A DNA stretch of 59,342 bases, filler included, from Bradymonadales bacterium (lineage in GTDB: Bacteria > Bdellovibrionota > UBA2394), in the NCBI GenBank assembly GCA_007693605.1. It is 6 parts of 6 records of this genome, joined end to end, with 100 filler letters (N's around TTAATTAATTAA, not from the genome) between each part and the next. Parts side by side here need not be neighbours in the genome. Positions count along the whole stretch, not along the records: positions 34,369 to 37,941 come from REDG01000071.1; 5 more parts are not named here. One strand, written 5' to 3'. Every line of letters begins with the position of its first letter. The first letter of the stretch is position 1. Both the position numbers and the translations under genes were made by a program. The notes beneath the pieces were generated by a model, which searched no databases, was not told the origin of the DNA, and saw nothing but the letters and a program-made list of their open reading frames with translations. This document shows positions 7,684 through 37,941 of this stretch, piece by piece.

Positions 7684-10605
7684 ATGATTATCAGGGATGC
7701 TAATGCTAATTTATTTATTGTCTTTGGTGGACTATTCAGTCGGAAAGTAATCGAAGGGCATCTACGAGAGCATACCTTTAAGGGGACTGCTCGTGCAGAT
7801 ACACGCAGTGCGTTGGGTGCGTTTTACTCCTTCATGTCCAGCGGAACTGGCGTTTCAGAAAGAAGCCGTCTTCAACCAAAAATTTTAGAGTTAGTGTCGA
7901 CTATTTCGGCCTGGAAGGATGTTGAGCGAACGGGTACGACCGGCGACTTGCTTTGTCTGAATAAGGGGAAGCAATTGCTAATTGAAGTGAAGGTTCAAAC
8001 AAGCGATCGTCTCGACGAAGCAAAGGGTTCTGGCGTCCCTTACGCTGAAGATCAGTTGATACGAGACTTGAACAGACGGAAAATACCATGGGGAATACTA
8101 ACAAATGGTTGGAGTTGGCGGTTCTACAATAAGGATATGCCAGAGCAGACCATTGAGTTTTGCCTTGCAGATATTGCTAGAAGTACAATCAGCCAGCCTG
8201 AATTGGATCTGTTTTGTGCAATGTTAGAAGACCCAGAGGTTCTGGCGAGACTACATAAGGAATCGGCCGAGGCAAAAACTAGATCAACAGAACTTCTTAG
8301 TAAGAATCTTAGAAATTGTTACCTGAGTCTATTGGGTGCGTCCTGGGAGAGAGAGGTTGCCGTCCGATTCTTGCTCCGACTATGCGCCCAACGATTTTTA
8401 GAAGACTGCGGAATCTTGAACGTTCTCGATAGAGGGTATCAGGATAGGCGACTAGACGTGCCTGATAATTTTGACCATGAGGCGAATATCGTTTCTTGGT
8501 TGTGTAAAGTTTGGAAAGAGATCGGTCGGGGCCGATGGACAATTCCCACCGAGAAAGCCGGTGACTTGCTTCCGATTTCGGAAGACTTTTTCACGAATGA
8601 AGAACAAAGGTTGTTGAAAAAACAGCCAGAGATAAAAGACCTCTCTTCCTTACTTCGTGAGACATTTGTTGCCGCTGGTGGCCCCATAGATTGTTCCGAT
8701 TTGAATATTGAATTCTTTGGCTCATTTTATCAGTTGGTTGAAGACCCGACTCAAAAGAACGACTCAGGGAGATACTTTACGAATTTGGAGTTGGCCAGAA
8801 GACTGTCTGTATACTTGTCGGAGAGATTTGCAAGGCGAGATACCCTCAGAGAGGGCGAGTACATTCTCGACCCGGCCTGTGGAAGTGGTCAGTTGCTGAG
8901 GTTGTTGATACCCTATGCGATGAACTTTGTTTCGTATGATGACTCAGCGCCAACAAAGTTGGAGCATTGGCGAAGGTTTTCACAACATCTCGCTGGCCTT
9001 GACATTGACGAGAACTGCGTCTGGATCGCAAAGGTTAGTCTTTGGCTTGCTACTGCTGCCAAGGGAAGACCATTTGTTCGTGTTAATGTAAGGAAGAATG
9101 ATGTCATCAGCTCTTGTATTGGGAAGAGTCGAGATGTTTATGGTGAGGCTTTAGGTTTTTCTCATACCGAGGCAGTCGTTGCTATAATTACAAACCCGCC
9201 CTGGGAGGAGCTGAGGATTCAGTTCCCTCAATATTACAAAAAGGCGACCGGGAAGACTACGCCAAAGCAGAGGGATGACAAGGCATGGCAAGAGTACATG
9301 AAATTCAAAGCTCGTCATCAAGGCGCGTTTGACAAGTTAGTGGATCACCAGTCAAAAATGAATCTAAAGATCAGACAGTGCTTTGGGATTAGCGGCATTC
9401 CAAATCTTGCAGAGGTTTTTTTGATAATCTGTCGCGATCTTTTAATCTCAATGGCTGAGACCACCGAACGAAGCCAGCTACCCTACGCCATTATTCTGCC
9501 AGACCAATTTTTTCTTGGTACGAGGATGGCCGAACTAAGAAAAAAGATCCTATGCGAGGTCGATTGCTATATTCCCTTCGCGAGAAACATTGATCCAAAT
9601 ACGGGCAAAAGATATTTTCATGGAGTTGACCCTAATCGGCGGTTCGGAATTATTCTAGGTAAGGTAAACCAGTCGAGATCTATCACCAACATAAGTGCTC
9701 GGCCCCTACACGGGATGGAGATTAAAGTGCCTCTTGATAAGCTCGGTCTCTTGCCCTTGCATAATCATCCAATCGAGCTAACTTGCCTTCAGCAGCTTGT
9801 GTCCCTCAGGAGCGATGAGGTTGAAGCGCTTTGGAATGTTGGAGAATGGGATGCCACAGCATGGAATCGAGGTTCGCGAAAGATAGTATCAGAGAGGTCA
9901 CCTCAGGCGATGGCTTTAATCAAAGCAGAGGGATTGGGGCTTGGCAGCGGGCACGAGTTGTCCTTTAGAAAGAAGGAGAACGTGCTTTGGTGGGTGCATT
10001 CAAAGGAGCCAAAAGATGTCAGTGTTGCAAGGTCGGGGCGGCTTATAATTGGAGACACAAAACGTAACGCTGGAAAAATAGTTCGCGCTGGATATGTGTT
10101 TGGCAGCAATCACAGAATCGCTGGAGTTGCTCGGCCTCTCAATGGAGTTGCACTGCAAAACACGCTGTTGTACGCACAAATTAGCTCAGACTGGTTGCCT
10201 TATTTTCAGTCACTATTTTTTGAGTTTGCAATGAGGAGTATCGCAGGAGCTCAACACTTGAATGCTTGGCGATTAAATTTATTGGGTATTCCAAGAATGC
10301 CAGAGGGGTTCCTTAAAAGATTGCAGAAATCGAGTTTTGCAGAGCAGCAAAGGTTGCTTGCAGAGGAACTTAAATTCACTCCTTCAGAGTTTTTGACTGT
10401 TGTTAAAGCTGCAAAACCACTGCTCCAGAGTGGCAACTGGGTCGAGCTCTTGGTTCAGGCCAAGAAGATGGCCGACAACGACACTCTTAAGCGGGAAATT
10501 TCAGAGCTGCTCGAATTGGAGAAGAAGGTTCAAGAATTGGAAAAAAAGGCAGCGAAGAAAAAGAGTCGTACGAAGGCTACACGTTTACAAGAAGCTTCAG
10601 GTTGA
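7684..10605 (+). CDS. Type IIG-like fused restriction endonuclease / N6-adenine methyltransferase
   Basis: GD..(IEVK) PD-(D/E)xK nuclease, WGILTNG..WRFY, GRYFT, ILDPACGSG, IITNPPW; start uncertain. Confidence 0.85.
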   Translation: MIIRDANANLFIVFGGLFSRKVIEGHLREHTFKGTARADTRSALGAFYSFMSSGTGVSERSRLQPKILELVSTISAWKDVERTGTTGDLLCLNKGKQLLIEVKVQTSDRLDEAKGSGVPYAEDQLIRDLNRRKIPWGILTNGWSWRFYNKDMPEQTIEFCLADIARSTISQPELDLFCAMLEDPEVLARLHKESAEAKTRSTELLSKNLRNCYLSLLGASWEREVAVRFLLRLCAQRFLEDCGILNVLDRGYQDRRLDVPDNFDHEANIVSWLCKVWKEIGRGRWTIPTEKAGDLLPISEDFFTNEEQRLLKKQPEIKDLSSLLRETFVAAGGPIDCSDLNIEFFGSFYQLVEDPTQKNDSGRYFTNLELARRLSVYLSERFARRDTLREGEYILDPACGSGQLLRLLIPYAMNFVSYDDSAPTKLEHWRRFSQHLAGLDIDENCVWIAKVSLWLATAAKGRPFVRVNVRKNDVISSCIGKSRDVYGEALGFSHTEAVVAIITNPPWEELRIQFPQYYKKATGKTTPKQRDDKAWQEYMKFKARHQGAFDKLVDHQSKMNLKIRQCFGISGIPNLAEVFLIICRDLLISMAETTERSQLPYAIILPDQFFLGTRMAELRKKILCEVDCYIPFARNIDPNTGKRYFHGVDPNRRFGIILGKVNQSRSITNISARPLHGMEIKVPLDKLGLLPLHNHPIELTCLQQLVSLRSDEVEALWNVGEWDATAWNRGSRKIVSERSPQAMALIKAEGLGLGSGHELSFRKKENVLWWVHSKEPKDVSVARSGRLIIGDTKRNAGKIVRAGYVFGSNHRIAGVARPLNGVALQNTLLYAQISSDWLPYFQSLFFEFAMRSIAGAQHLNAWRLNLLGIPRMPEGFLKRLQKSSFAEQQRLLAEELKFTPSEFLTVVKAAKPLLQSGNWVELLVQAKKMADNDTLKREISELLELEKKVQELEKKAAKKKSRTKATRLQEASG

Positions 10606-16747: not shown

Positions 16748-17176
16748 TGGAGCGGGAGAAGGGGATCGAACCCTCGACCCCAATTTATGGTGAGCGAGTC
16801 TTTCGAGCGAATGAAGCTCCGAGCAGAGCGCAGGAGCTGAAAATAAATTGGCCCATAGGATCGTCTACGATTAGCTTTTTGGGTGGAGTGTGGAGCGGGA
16901 GAAGGGGATCGAACCCTCGACCCAGCTTTGCGGTGAGCGAGTCTTTCGAGCGAGCGACAAGGCGAGCAGAGCGCAGCCTTGGAGAGCAAAGATGCCCATA
17001 GGATCGTTTACGATTAGCTTTTTGGGTGGAGTGTGGAGCGGGAGAAGGGGATCGAACCCTCGACCCAGCTTTGCGGTGAGCGAGTCTTTCGAGCGAGCGA
17101 CAAGGCGAGCAGAGCGCAGCCTTGGAGAGCAAAGATGCCCATAGGATCGTTTACGATTAGCTTTTTGGGTGGAGTG
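16748..17176 (-). repeat. Three 143-bp tandem units, each ending in the tRNA-Gly 3' 32 nt
   Basis: TGGAGCGGGAGAAGGGGATCGAACCCTCGACC at 16748, 16891, 17034 and 17177. Confidence 0.95.
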
Positions 17177-17251
17177 TGGAGCGGGAGAAGGGGATCGAAC
17201 CCTCGACCTTCTGCTTGGCAAGCAGACGCTCTACCACTGAGCTACTCCCGC
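17177..17251 (-). tRNA. tRNA-Gly (GCC)
   Basis: 75-nt cloverleaf GCGGGAG...TTGCCAA...CTCCCGCTCCA. Confidence 0.97.
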
Positions 17252-34001: not shown

Positions 34002-34005
34002 CGCG

Positions 34006-34268
34006 GGGGAGTGGCGCTAAGGGCCCATCTGCCCCTACACTCTGGTCGACCTTCGGTCGACATGGTTTGAGGATGGCTGCAACCCTCCTTTCCCGCGTTG
34101 CAGTGTCGGCTGCGTCGCTGCGCTGCTCAAGTAGCATCAAAACTACATTCCGCTGCTCGCTCCTTGCCTTCTCGCATCTGGACCCTTATCGCCACTCCCC
34201 ATGAAGCGCTAAAGGCCCATCTGCCCCTACACTCTGGTCGACCTTCGGTCGACATGGTTTGAGGATGG
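34006..34268 (+). repeat. ~195-bp MITE/REP-like element with 26-bp imperfect TIRs, plus a truncated tandem copy
   Basis: GGGGAGTGGCGCTAAGGGCCCATCTG ... CATCTGGACCCTTATCGCCACTCCCC; relatives at 43369, 45375 and 53079. Confidence 0.85.
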
Positions 34269-34368: not shown

Positions 34369-34435
34369 CGATCCGAGCTCAAAAGCTAAGTGACTTCGAC
34401 TCCAGTTTCCCGACCGCACTCCACCAAACTGTTTC

Positions 34436-34654
34436 TCAACCTTGACTCGCAATAAAAAAAAGTTCGTCCCAGTCGTCATTGGAAGTGATTTTGTGAAGGT
34501 TCAAATGATCACATGACTTGGGAAAATCGAGACCTTGCAATGGGAGCCATAAAGCGCTGTAAGATATTGGATCTCTATGTGAATTTGGATTGAGGGCTTG
34601 CTCCGTATCCCAGAAATACTGTTTGAAGGTTTCAGGGCTGCTATTGAGGCTCAT
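34436..34654 (-). pseudogene. Possible DUF6922-like (FWD motif) antitoxin remnant
   Basis: FKQYFWD near the N-terminus; remainder degenerate. Confidence 0.3.
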
Positions 34655-34763
34655 TGCAATACTGATTATGACTTAGGGCGTATTGAGATGCCAAGGGTCA
34701 GCTCAAGCCACACGCTGCTCAAAACACCAGGTTCGATATTCGTCCACTCGGCCCTGCCATTTG

Positions 34764-34955
34764 CTACTTCCGCCGCGGAAGTAAATTGATGGACTCCCAT
34801 TTTTTGCGAGCTGCGGGATCGTTCTTCCAAATTTCAAACATCCATGCTCGATGACCATCAAGCCATTCGATGATCTGTTCGTGATTGAGTTTTGGGGTTG
34901 TTCCCCAGTACTCAGTCTTCGGTTGATTTTTCGAGTTGTCGGATGTCGAACTCAT
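34764..34955 (-). CDS. Small partner protein of the nucleotidyltransferase
   Basis: Overlaps the NTase 3' end; LNHEQIIEWL helix. Confidence 0.55.
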   Translation of the reverse strand: MSSTSDNSKNQPKTEYWGTTPKLNHEQIIEWLDGHRAWMFEIWKNDPAARKKWESINLLPRRK

Positions 34956-35400
34956 CTTTCTCTCTTCCAGTACCTTGTTTCATTGCAATAAGGTCAGATT
35001 TACCTACGACTTTTATCTTAAGCCCAAAAGCCTGAATCTCAAAATGCCTACTCCAAAGTTCATCAAACGGCATGGGCTCCCTAGCGAAAACATCAATAAT
35101 TTCAAAAGGGTTGTCTGGCTTAACGAATGAAAAAACCATCATATGCTTTTGAGTGATCCATTCCTCTCTAATTTTGGAATCAGCAAAATCGATCGCTCTG
35201 ACTGGTAGACGAGGAACAAACCCAAGATCCGTCATCAAGCTTACAAATGAAAGTAGATTCTCTGTTTGCAAATGGACAATTAGATCGAGGTCAACCGTTG
35301 CTCGTTGGACTTGATGGAAGTTTACAGCAAAGCCTCCAGCGACAAGATATCGAATTTGTCTTTTCTCTAGCTCTGCGAAGACTTGCTGATACGGGGTCAT
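34912..35400 (-). CDS. Pol-beta-type nucleotidyltransferase (AbiEii/DUF6036-like)
   Basis: YLVAGGFAV..H...RAT.DLDL, LIAMK...GR.KD..D. Confidence 0.85.
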   Translation of the reverse strand: MTPYQQVFAELEKRQIRYLVAGGFAVNFHQVQRATVDLDLIVHLQTENLLSFVSLMTDLGFVPRLPVRAIDFADSKIREEWITQKHMMVFSFVKPDNPFEIIDVFAREPMPFDELWSRHFEIQAFGLKIKVVGKSDLIAMKQGTGREKDEFDIRQLEKSTED

Positions 35401-35613
35401 TTAGTTAAGCTACCCTTTTTACTAAGGAGGCACCAAGCTCGATATTCGCCCACTTGGCCCGCCACATTTTCATCTTACTTCCTCTGCCGGAAAGAGCGGA
35501 TGGACTGAAGTTGTCGATACAAAGTTTTGCGACCGTTGCCTAAACGACAAAATTTTGACTCCGTAGCCCAGCTATTTTGTCCGTGCTAGCCTTGATGCAA
35601 GGGGATCGATTCT

Positions 35614-36123
35614 ATGAAGGCTATGGGTTTGTCGGCAGTGAGTTTGTTTTTCACCATCTTAACCACATCTGAAGCTCAGGCGTTGGAAGAGCGTAATCTA
35701 GGTTCAGTGAACGGAGGGGCCTATGTCTGCGAGGTCAAGGTTCATAACCAAGAGGGAAAGATACTAGATGCGGATAAGAGTAAGTCGATTCGTGTAGAGG
35801 TCTCAGAAGAAAACATGGGTTTTAAAGCTTCAGTTGAGCGAAAGTTTAGCTCCTACGACTTTGATGAGATTGAGTTTGATGGTGAGCTTTCAGTCCTGAT
35901 TGCTCTCGATTCGATCGCAGGGGTGGAGGGTTCCAAATTTTCTGACGATATCAAATCTTTGATACTGTCCATCCACTATTCAGAGGTCGAGGGGTCGACT
36001 TGGGCAGCCCTATCCAATACTAAACTTGGTGGCCATGCCTGGTTGGCCATTCCGTTTGAGGGTACGCATACATCGCTGTTGATGGCGGGCTTAAGCTGCC
36101 ACTTTCACTCATACAACAAATGA
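35614..36123 (+). CDS. Secreted hypothetical protein
   Basis: Signal peptide ending AQA. Confidence 0.7.
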   Translation: MKAMGLSAVSLFFTILTTSEAQALEERNLGSVNGGAYVCEVKVHNQEGKILDADKSKSIRVEVSEENMGFKASVERKFSSYDFDEIEFDGELSVLIALDSIAGVEGSKFSDDIKSLILSIHYSEVEGSTWAALSNTKLGGHAWLAIPFEGTHTSLLMAGLSCHFHSYNK

Positions 36124-36373
36124 AGAAATCTCCGGTTTTTCGAGTGTGATCACTCTTAGCTTAGTCTAAGCCCAATCCCCAGGATCTCTCGGCCTTTAGC
36201 TCGAGTCTGTGAGGGGTGGTGCTGTTTTGGGGTGGGGTCAACTGGCAGTGATTCCAGCTCAATTCCTTGCACACTTCGGGGCAAAGGCCTCTTAGGCGGA
36301 TTTCAAGGCCAAGGCCTAGCAGGCCGCTGTCTGCTCCCAACACCAGGTTCGAGTCCTTTCGGCCCGGGTGTTG

Positions 36374-36401
36374 TTGACATTAGGCATACATTAGGTATAC
36401 T
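36374..36401 (+). promoter_or_regulatory. Sigma70 promoter with tandem operator repeat
   Basis: TTGACA-16-TATACT; ATTAGGCATAC/ATTAGGTATAC tandem. Confidence 0.75.
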
Positions 36402-36407
36402 TAGAAA

Positions 36408-36674
36408 GTGAAGAAGGTCTTTCGCTGGAATCCGGGAAAGGATGCCTGGCTCATTCGGAACCGAGGCATATCCTTTGAGGAAGTGCTAGGGGCTATATCG
36501 ACGGCTCTGCTCGATGTCAGAGTAAACCCCAGCACCAAGCATCCCCAGCAGAAAACCTTCATAGTTAAGATTCATGATTATCCATGGGTGGTGCCGTTTA
36601 AAGAGAACGAAAGAGAGATTGAACTGATTACCGCTTTTCCTGACCGCCGCTTATTTAAGGAGTTTCCGAGATGA
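36408..36674 (+). CDS. BrnT-family toxin
   Basis: F.W...K...L...RGISFEEV, HPQQ, VVPF, LITAFP.R. Confidence 0.85.
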   Translation: MKKVFRWNPGKDAWLIRNRGISFEEVLGAISTALLDVRVNPSTKHPQQKTFIVKIHDYPWVVPFKENEREIELITAFPDRRLFKEFPR

Positions 36675-36994
36675 AGATAAAGCTTACTAAAGATGAGAAG
36701 AAAGTCGCTGAAGATCTTAAAAGGGGGAAGTACCAGTCGCTTTCAAAATCTGATGTCAAACAATATGCGAAGCTGGCAACGAGTGAGGTCGAGCGTCGTA
36801 AGGAATCTCGAAAGGAAGAACGGATTAACATTCGATTAACACCTGATGACTTGGCGGGTTTACGAGTACGGGCTGAGGAAGAGGGGCTGCCCTATCAAAC
36901 CCTGGTTGCTAGTGTGATTCATAAATATGTCGATGGGCAGTTGGTCGATGTTAACAATCTTTCTGCAATTAAGCGGGCTTTGAAGGTGGATTAA
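36671..36994 (+). CDS. RHH/CopG-type antitoxin
   Basis: RINIRL...DL..LR..A..EGLPYQTL..SV.HKY; ATGA overlap with the toxin. Confidence 0.85.
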   Translation: MKIKLTKDEKKVAEDLKRGKYQSLSKSDVKQYAKLATSEVERRKESRKEERINIRLTPDDLAGLRVRAEEEGLPYQTLVASVIHKYVDGQLVDVNNLSAIKRALKVD

Positions 36995-37174
36995 GCTGCG
37001 ATTTGCCAGAAACACCAGATTCTGAATTCGTCCCTTCGGCCCTGCCACTAAAAAAGATCAGGGGTTTCAGTCCCCGTGCTCTTTTGATTTGTGGGTCGGG
37101 GATTTGAGTTTCTCGATGCATTTGGGTGACAGGCAGGGGGTCCAAGGCCGATGCCATGCCGAGTGAGATTCGCC

Positions 37175-37759
37175 TTATGTCCCCGTGGCTACAATCGTTG
37201 GCAAATGTTGACTCAAAAAGACAAACAGAAATAAAACAAATAGTCCGACTAGAATCAAAATTTGTTTCATTTTGCTTGATGTGGAAACTTGAAAATATTC
37301 CCGAACATTTTTTCGAAAAACATAAACCAAAATGAACATGCCCCAGAGGGAAAGGCTAAAGCCATACAAGATCTGCTTGGTCAATGTTCCGGGATCCAGC
37401 TGATCCGTCAGGGCCATGGCAGCTAATGTTACAATGAGCCCCTTAGAGGTGGAATAAACGGAATAGGTTCCCAAAGCCCACCAGCCATAGCGCGCTCCTC
37501 GCAAACCTCCTATAGCGATACCCACAAATATCGTGAAAAGCGGAAAAGCCATAGAAGCTGCGAGTCCGGAGGCTTCCGCGCCATGGGTGAGGCCGACAGA
37601 CACGACGGAGCCTGTTAAGATGAGGGCTGAAATGCCGGCCAAGGCGATCATCGCTGAAATGAGAAAAGGTCTTTTCTTCTTCTCATTTCCATTGGGAAGT
37701 TGAGTTGTTTTGGGCATGATTGGAGTCCAGGTGATGTTGGTAAAATTATCATTTTTCAT
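37175..37759 (-). CDS. Multi-pass membrane protein
   Basis: About five hydrophobic segments. Confidence 0.7.
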   Translation of the reverse strand: MKNDNFTNITWTPIMPKTTQLPNGNEKKKRPFLISAMIALAGISALILTGSVVSVGLTHGAEASGLAASMAFPLFTIFVGIAIGGLRGARYGWWALGTYSVYSTSKGLIVTLAAMALTDQLDPGTLTKQILYGFSLSLWGMFILVYVFRKNVREYFQVSTSSKMKQILILVGLFVLFLFVFLSQHLPTIVATGT

Positions 37760-37772
37760 CAGAGATTAGGTC

Positions 37773-37789
37773 TGCAAGTTGTGTGCCAA
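37773..37789 (-). promoter_or_regulatory. Sigma54 promoter
   Basis: TTGGCACACAACTTGCA, near-perfect consensus. Confidence 0.8.
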
Positions 37790-37941
37790 TCGGTTCCGGT
37801 GGAACAAAGGGATTTTTGGGGGCGGCTTGTGGGGAAGAACCTACAGTCCTTCAGTTGTTGTCGGTAATTGCCAACTCTTTGCCTATTCTAGCGCAGGGAG
37901 ACATAACTGACAGAGGAGGCGTGGAAGTTTTGATTGTGAGA

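Follow-up and report, generated by a model that had tools for sequence, protein, structure and literature searches.

What kind of recombination builds a row of very small gene units, with related short repeats between them, in a member of the Bdellovibrionota? The question arises from a 59,342-nucleotide stretch of DNA (the window) from a Bradymonadales bacterium of the UBA2394 lineage (GenBank assembly GCA_007693605.1, 2.19 Mb, 90% complete; G000, the genome under study). The array lies entirely on C48, a separate contig of 3,573 bp (REDG01000071.1, window positions 34369–37941) that carries four repeats, R1 to R4. A first-pass annotation had seen in them tRNA-Trp-derived hairpin sites at which a recombinase acting in trans serially captured integrase-less mini-cassettes. 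We found that the repeats match the attachment (att) sites of elements that encode a large serine recombinase (LSR) and reside at tRNA-Asp genes; the array therefore likely consists of leftovers of such elements and is not an integron. In the explanation that we consider probable, the elements were inserted serially by an LSR at the 3′ end of tRNA-Asp and have shrunk by deletion to one or two cargo genes each. It is built on the observed identity of the site, the LSR family, its target tRNA in relatives, the decay of one element and the presence or absence of units as whole blocks.

The four repeat strings were located where the annotation had placed them, at 34725–34759 (R1), 35431–35464 (R2), 36341–36365 (R3) and 37013–37047 (R4), and the intervals of 705, 901 and 682 bp agree with its estimate of about 0.65–0.9 kb. 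With a weight matrix made of 25 sites from other genomes only, R1 (56.9), R4 (32.8) and R2 (20.4) gave the three best scores across the assembly, where the reversed-genome control reached 5.7 at most; R3, which is 5 nt shorter, was not part of this scoring. Both ends of C48 are multicopy repeats that also occur on other contigs of the assembly, which links C48 with this genome. The junctions are as follows.

34703–34759, minus strand, R1 junction: a recombinase C-terminal stub, WQGRVDEYRTWCFEQRVA and a stop, overlaps a tRNA-Asp-like core at 34742–34759
35431–35464, plus strand, R2 junction, degenerate: the stub is frameshifted and the core is one base short
36341–36365, plus strand, R3 junction: tRNA-type spacing without the 5-nt offset, 3′ end truncated
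36991–37047, minus strand, R4 junction: stub WQGRRDEFRIWCFWQIAA and a stop; the core at 37030–37047 agrees with the family tRNA-Asp end at 17 of 18 positions

The 5′ half of the repeat, previously read as a tRNA-like strand able to pair with the 3′ half, is instead the coding end of an LSR gene. On the reverse strand it encodes the end of an LSR with the pattern W-x-G-R-V-D-E-[YF]-R-T-W-C, and minus-strand reading of R1 and R4 yields the two stubs given above. The ending of the R1 stub also ends an LSR fragment, P0042. Differing codon pairs are synonymous in 40% of cases in the LSR frame against 10–20% in the other five frames (27 of 33 sites, with a score of at least 40; pairs from related sites are not independent). 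The E, R and C residues are split almost evenly between synonymous codons, and three stops occur in 162 stub codons. The site pattern with this spacing was found in 19 of 401 phylum genomes, this one included, from six families, and not once in the reversed control.

A profile of LSR ends and stubs matched 614 proteins at E 0.001. The top 150 comprise 29 proteins of the stub form (ending W....D[EDA][FYL]RT), 36 of an antisense-tRNA form and 85 of neither, with P0042, which ends KWRSRWDEYRTWCFEELAA, as the best match. As the profile contained the stub it favours stub-form matches, and the independent fact is the presence of the stub ending on full-length LSRs, seen in five proteins of 528–570 aa with PF00239 and PF07508. 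The residues DYKKPFDMFVDIKNIEK, with which a deleted LSR at the tRNA terminates in the relative G335, also stand before the site there. An LSR fragment of the G335 type, used as query, revealed the family in 77 of the 401 genomes; 25 of the 30 loci fetched adjoin a tRNA or tmRNA gene, and seven read into tRNA-Asp as W-R-x-x-RDSN. None of seven close homologues of the G125 LSR has the stub form, six ending in antisense tRNA-Asp and one stopping at the junction.

Some candidates were discarded on the way. An initial pattern scan of the collection gave six loci, of which L043 and L044 were spurious and two others were one contig. The LSR beside tRNA-Asp in G012 belongs to a different family that uses another frame (GGAEGTRTL) and has 33 homologues without the stub. 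A 556-aa LSR of a different family, ending in tRNA-Asp in that other frame, lies at L038:1210–2880 (minus strand), and so at least two LSR families have tRNA-Asp as their target.

The 3′ half of the repeat does derive from a tRNA 3′ end, as the first-pass annotation had it, the tRNA being Asp and not Trp. The tRNA-Asp of the family mostly ends GTCCCTTCGGCCCCGCCA (ARAGORN called tRNA-Asp in 8 of 14 fetched regions, plus G003), the tail pattern is present in 13 of 14 genomes of the same family, and R3 is identical to tRNA-Asp positions 53–72 at 19 of 20 bases. Copies of the tRNA-Asp end lie downstream of tRNA-Asp on the same strand in relatives, and a tRNA-His array of the genome under study repeats its target 3′ end in the same manner. 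Judging from the relatives, C48 would be linked to tRNA-Asp in G000 too. The contig regions fetched from G237 contained no tRNA.

Hairpin sites derived from tRNA-Trp and acting like attC are, by this evidence, hardly credible. R1 and R4 do end CGGCCCTGCCA, and the minus strand of R1 allows a weak stem (z −1.8), but the host tRNA-Trp has a different 3′ end (CCTCCTGGCCTG, 12 of 15 bases against R4), and the Trp-like acceptor T at 34755 is a C in contigs of three of the four sequencing runs compared and in 24 of 26 aligned sites. The hairpin is not conserved: across 26 sites 61.5% of cells pair against 62.2% after shuffling, with one two-sided change, and covariation in the proposed stem is 0.065 against 0.077 shuffled. 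Only the R3 region folds better than its shuffles (z −2.4), and Rfam returned one chance-level match only.

Integrons and pdif modules are rows of one- or two-gene units, rich in toxin-antitoxin pairs, with short related sites in between, and the array here resembles them in being such a row, with toxin-antitoxin pairs and short related sites. It differs in lacking an IntI, attC boxes, a conserved hairpin and a dif-like site. The model of the integron integrase IntI (TIGR02249) reached at best 71 bits in the assembly against a cut-off of 265, and on C48 we found neither an attC RYYYAAC...GTTRRRY box pair within 150 bp nor a match to the 28-bp XerC/XerD dif consensus, the familiar forms of both motifs being used. 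The separation from attC and pdif systems that had been proposed is therefore upheld. The genes of the array, in comparison with integrons and pdif modules, stand in both orientations and have their own promoter in at least one unit.

Relatives have intact LSR elements, bounded at one end by an LSR gene that enters the tRNA in antisense direction and at the other by the site. In G125 a 496-aa LSR runs into tRNA-Asp; 7,021 bp separate this tRNA from a site reading DEFRT, and another 958 bp on there is a weaker one. At L156 a 499-aa LSR adjoins tRNA-Ser, with the site 4,696 bp away. G335 contains the L156 element twice, each time reduced in size. The first copy has lost an internal part of its LSR (91–94% identity to L156); in the second, 66 bp from the end of the LSR (89%), a cargo gene (77%) and the stub arm persist.

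The geometry of the sites may show where recombination takes place. The distance from the start of the GTTCnA motif to the 3′ end is 24 nt for 12 of 12 tRNAs and 29 nt for 12 of 13 sites, a 5-bp offset, the spacing being part of the search pattern; a mirror motif was sought in the right arms and not found. The accessible text of one source reports for serine integrases a zinc-domain motif that lies 5 bp nearer to the crossover in attB than in attP (PMC3783163). At host tRNA-Ser genes only the last 6 bases are identical between tRNA and site. Judged from sequence, the crossover would thus fall within the last ~6 bases of the tRNA; as the right arms hold no mirror motif it is narrowed no further.

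Serial insertion followed by shrinkage would probably proceed as follows. The last ~6 bases of the tRNA would cross over with a point inside the 3′ end of the LSR gene; integration would swap the last ~12–18 residues of the LSR for antisense tRNA codons, and the native stub would remain at the distal junction. Each newcomer would enter at the tRNA and push older units away. Deletion would remove the recombinase and other modules, while toxin-antitoxin pairs and small genes of use would persist beside the stub. Units would be gained and lost as blocks, through a visiting LSR or by deletion between repeats, and the internal junctions would come out attP-like on both sides.

The behaviour of units was surveyed in 27 loci chosen for carrying the site or copies of the tRNA-Asp tail. 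They gave 42 intervals (median 1,058 bp), 33 of them at most 1.6 kb; this automated count overlooked R3 and, in G335, G122 and L156, the tRNA end, and some of the weak sites in it may be false. Where the motif occurs, it often encloses units of 0.5–1.6 kb that have no recombinase, and the annotation was right that the repeats bound small recombinase-less units whose content varies among relatives. In G047, tRNA-Asp is directly followed by a 525-bp unit and then by a 770-bp HigBA unit, each closed by the site. G009 and G013 differ precisely by a 608-bp GNAT unit, which only G009 has, the flanks being identical at 97 of 98 and 79 of 80 positions. A 1.2-kb HigBA+GNAT unit, 93% identical in G237 and G318, has sites at both ends and different neighbours, and G237 and G378, members of two families, share a toxin-antitoxin unit at 93% identity. 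Unit 3 of the window recurs at L154 (73% over 671 bp), att-like on both sides and among other neighbours, with 63 of 88 toxin and 90 of 107 antitoxin residues identical. Contigs of sequencing runs X2 and X4 start or stop matching C48 at 34762–34766, at R1, and continue into other neighbours; runs X2 to X4 cover small parts of the contig only, so that their lack of cover is uninformative.

Several of these findings would also be expected of live mini-cassettes, that is, of an LSR that acts in trans to excise, circularise and re-insert single units of 0.5–1.5 kb as a serine-recombinase analogue of the integron. The abundance of short intervals without an LSR match speaks for such mobility, as do the near-identical units in different surroundings or families, the break at R1 in contigs of other runs and the precision of the 608-bp difference. 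Recombination of attP with attP, moreover, is reported for the A118 integrase and CcrA/B in the accessible text of PMC3783163, which makes movement of single units in trans conceivable. The same text, however, describes attP-like × attP-like pairing as inefficient for most serine integrases (PMC3783163), and the sites decay, as seen in R2, R3 and the stops in stub codons. The similarity between G237 and G378 stops short of the site on the visible side, and genes homologous to those of unit 1 stand in G001, G008 and G011 without such sites. One X2 contig of depth 3.2 joins 35419 to 34724; since unit 1 does not follow on it, we take the joint for an intact closing site, and it gives no evidence of a circle. 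Site matches were absent from the viral contigs, phages and plasmids searched, and G047 and G114 have arrays yet no PF07508 match. On balance we consider live mini-cassettes unlikely. Equally doubtful is the broader idea of a phylum-wide counterpart of the integron, in which an LSR reads the tRNA T-loop as an attB motif, has its C-terminus switched by integration and moves cassettes of 0.5–1.5 kb in trans. Of the serial capture in trans that was first proposed, the recombination junctions stand; the capture of ready-made mini-cassettes is unlikely, the direct evidence favouring shrinkage of larger autonomous elements.

Shrinkage of serially inserted elements has observations of its own weighing against it. 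The size of the cargo and its tight fit against the stub are more ordered than random deletion suggests, and descent of a small unit from a larger element was directly seen only in G335 and G122. None of the 33 intervals of at most 1.6 kb matches an LSR (three larger ones do), and the PF07508 match is missing in two of the five array-bearing genomes tested, the G047 and G114 named above. The right arms are unconserved beyond 2–5 T, so most small units show no LSR remnant, and the sequence to the right of R1 and R2 is without the KPF...W ending of tRNA-Asp LSRs. In this assembly we found no catalytic LSR, no tRNA-Asp and no linking contig end. To these are added the dependence among codon pairs already mentioned and the 29-nt position, which is partly built into the search pattern.

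A spread of the repeats that did not involve an LSR was considered as well. In that case a repetitive extragenic palindrome (REP)-like or tRNA-linked module, or a tyrosine recombinase, would have distributed sequences that merely resemble LSR ends. Plain copies of the tRNA-Asp tail follow gene-less modules of 262 and 326 bp in G009 and G013, R3 has tRNA-type spacing and follows a multicopy module, and the genome has tyrosine recombinases, but such a spread leaves unexplained the synonymous variation in the LSR frame, the LSR proteins with the same end residues and the site that closes intact LSR elements on the side away from the tRNA. It is very improbable overall and largely refuted for R1, R2 and R4; R3 alone may have arisen in this way.

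The array is a cassette-sized variant, in Bdellovibrionota, of known LSR tandem islands. For the ssrA islands of Dehalococcoides, the accessible text of PMC3146451 describes islands in tandem that follow a single tRNA-like gene and have the repeat of its 3′ end as their boundaries, and a serine recombinase of ~540 aa, DsiB, encoded on the reverse strand with its 3′ end overlapping attL. It further describes a conserved non-target motif just upstream of each repeat and 15 islands without an integration module (PMC3146451). Tandem units, target-end repeats, an upstream motif and units without integration module are shared with our loci, as far as that text describes them, and the LSR trait of these ssrA-GI-type islands (GI, genomic island) was found in G125, G197, G395, G063, G276 and L156. 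In contrast to the islands in that text, the target here is tRNA-Asp (also Ser, Arg and His) and not ssrA, the units mostly measure 0.5–1.6 kb with one or two genes, C48 has no DsiA-type or six-gene DsiA/DsiB module, and the upstream motif encodes the last codons of the recombinase itself.

The array also fits the accretion model of cis-mobilisable (CIME), integrative conjugative (ICE) and integrative mobilisable elements (IME), which in the accessible text runs from integration through decay to an element with only attL and attR to a new integration at the same site (PMC5704250). The CIME trait, loss of integration genes with retention of att ends, was found in the units of the window and in the deleted copies of G335. 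CIMEs, as that text presents them, are mostly from Firmicutes and tied to conjugation, whereas the units here are far smaller and no conjugation genes were seen at these loci. Tycheposons and other tRNA islands of Prochlorococcus are described, in the accessible text, as integrating serially at tRNA ends, leaving partial tRNA copies and pushing remnants away; 910 of 937 use tyrosine recombinases and many have replication genes (bioRxiv 10.1101/2020.12.28.424599). Stacking at tRNA ends with partial tRNA copies is common to both, and LSR stubs and cassette size are features of our array that this text does not describe. The LSRs of the family match the CcrB and XisF NCBIfam models best (E 1e-14 to 1e-37) and share the domain set PF00239+PF07508(+PF13408) with the Ccr recombinases of the staphylococcal cassette chromosome (SCC/SCCmec), in contrast to which they reach 54–130 bits against the CcrB cut-off of 900, come as one LSR and not as a Ccr pair, and have a tRNA target.

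The 2014 Islander paper states, in the accessible text, that no targeting of tRNA genes by serine integrases was known (PMC4383910). TIGER/Islander leaves out islands smaller than 2 kb or without an integrase (PMC12424338), so the size class of these units goes uncounted. The literature searched, mostly abstracts and with subscription papers and supplements outside its scope, held no description of cassette-sized LSR arrays at tRNA-Asp. The present comparison names the enzyme family, the target and the junction grammar of a gene-gain hot spot in Bdellovibrionota. The LSR family offers enzymes that target conserved tRNA ends, and an att site inside the LSR gene, which would swap the tail of the enzyme on integration, is a testable form of directionality control. 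If single units do move in trans, this would be an integron-like system based on a different chemistry, and tRNA-Asp arrays would amount to libraries of shuffled cassettes, overlooked by current island catalogues as a matter of design; if they do not, the array would be a compact case of known accretion and decay.

The remaining features of C48 are listed below.

34369–34423, unstranded, end of a multicopy element that breaks the assembly upstream of the array; its copy on contig C71 flanks a pair of open reading frames (ORFs) that we take to be of the IS3-like family
34424–34759, unstranded, unit 0, left side cut off
34436–34654, minus strand, 72-aa ORF in unit 0 without a Pfam or NCBIfam match
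34764–35400, minus strand, unit 1 cargo: nucleotidyltransferase (NTase)-like protein and partner ORF
34912–35400, minus strand, 162-aa NTase-like protein of unit 1 (DUF6036, E 9e-4, below cut-off)
34764–34955, minus strand, 63-aa partner ORF of unit 1
35614–36123, plus strand, unit 2 cargo: 169-aa orphan protein whose N-terminus is hydrophobic
36225–36293, unstranded, short repeat module, also on C20 and C42 and, more weakly, on C13, C45 and C2
36374–36401, plus strand, sigma-70-like promoter TTGACA-16-TATACT of the toxin-antitoxin pair, conserved in L154
36408–36994, plus strand, unit 3 cargo: BrnT-like toxin and CopG/BrnA-like antitoxin
36408–36674, plus strand, BrnT-like toxin of unit 3
36671–36994, plus strand, CopG/BrnA-like antitoxin of unit 3

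Small units in either orientation had been noted, and we recovered them as an NTase-like pair (minus strand), a 169-aa orphan ORF (plus) and BrnT with a CopG/BrnA-type antitoxin (plus); the Pfam scores of all interval cargo proteins are below the curated cut-offs. A supposed FWD-antitoxin remnant before R1 found no Pfam match. The 169-aa protein may be secreted, as its sequence hints; a homologue search returned only itself, and Atlas matches stayed under 0.9. Run X1 has a 1,286-bp contig of depth 70 that overlaps the multicopy element at 34369–34423. The unit 1 cargo has homologous DNA at 66–68% in G001, G008 and G011, and homologues of its NTase pair begin beside degenerate tRNA-Gln-like sequence in two relatives (L002 and L027). 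At L154, adjacent units end in an identical stub arm of ~45 bp (8810–8868 and 9660–9700), the second core being cut after GTCC. After R4, a 194-aa membrane protein without a family match above cut-off is encoded at 37175–37759 (minus strand), and no closing site was found between it and the end of C48.

Behind tRNA-His, G000 carries another array in which the same arm recurs, at C64:40014–44854 and on C54 (L028). Two stub-type sites (WGAWLDDFGTAC) lie on C54, the cargo includes DarT/DarG and RelE/ParE-like pairs, and the tail copies are:

C64 41742, tRNA-His tail copy
C64 43691, tRNA-His tail copy
C64 44789, tRNA-His tail copy

A second type of junction involves small helix-turn-helix (HTH) + PF07508 proteins without a catalytic domain:

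L022:2406–2915, HTH + PF07508 protein
L041:2076–2543, HTH + PF07508 protein
L033:5161–5676, HTH + PF07508 protein
L036:399–857, HTH + PF07508 protein
L028:1414–1821, HTH + PF07508 protein

Some of these proteins start at an ATG inside the reversed tRNA core (MAEPKGTIP, MAGPMGTKP), and about ten short PF07508 frames of this type are present in G007. At L136:3144–3893 (minus strand) an LSR C-terminal region continues in frame through KPF...W into an HTH + PF07508 domain, an arrangement suggesting that the recombinase can lose an entire additional DNA-binding domain through integration.

The gene-less modules of 262 and 326 bp follow tRNA-Asp immediately, and a copy of its end, from T-loop to CCA, closes every one of them:

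L031:12749–13337, minus strand, gene-less module
L037:1002–1345, gene-less module
L021:11617–11880, gene-less module

Elsewhere in the window, a multicopy palindromic repeat common to many contig ends follows a metallophosphoesterase gene (34005–34268), and tandem repeats with tRNA 3′ copies lie behind tRNA-Gly (16748–17251). Arrays with the site described here also occur in metagenome contigs (L149 and L151), whose flanking genes suggest other hosts.

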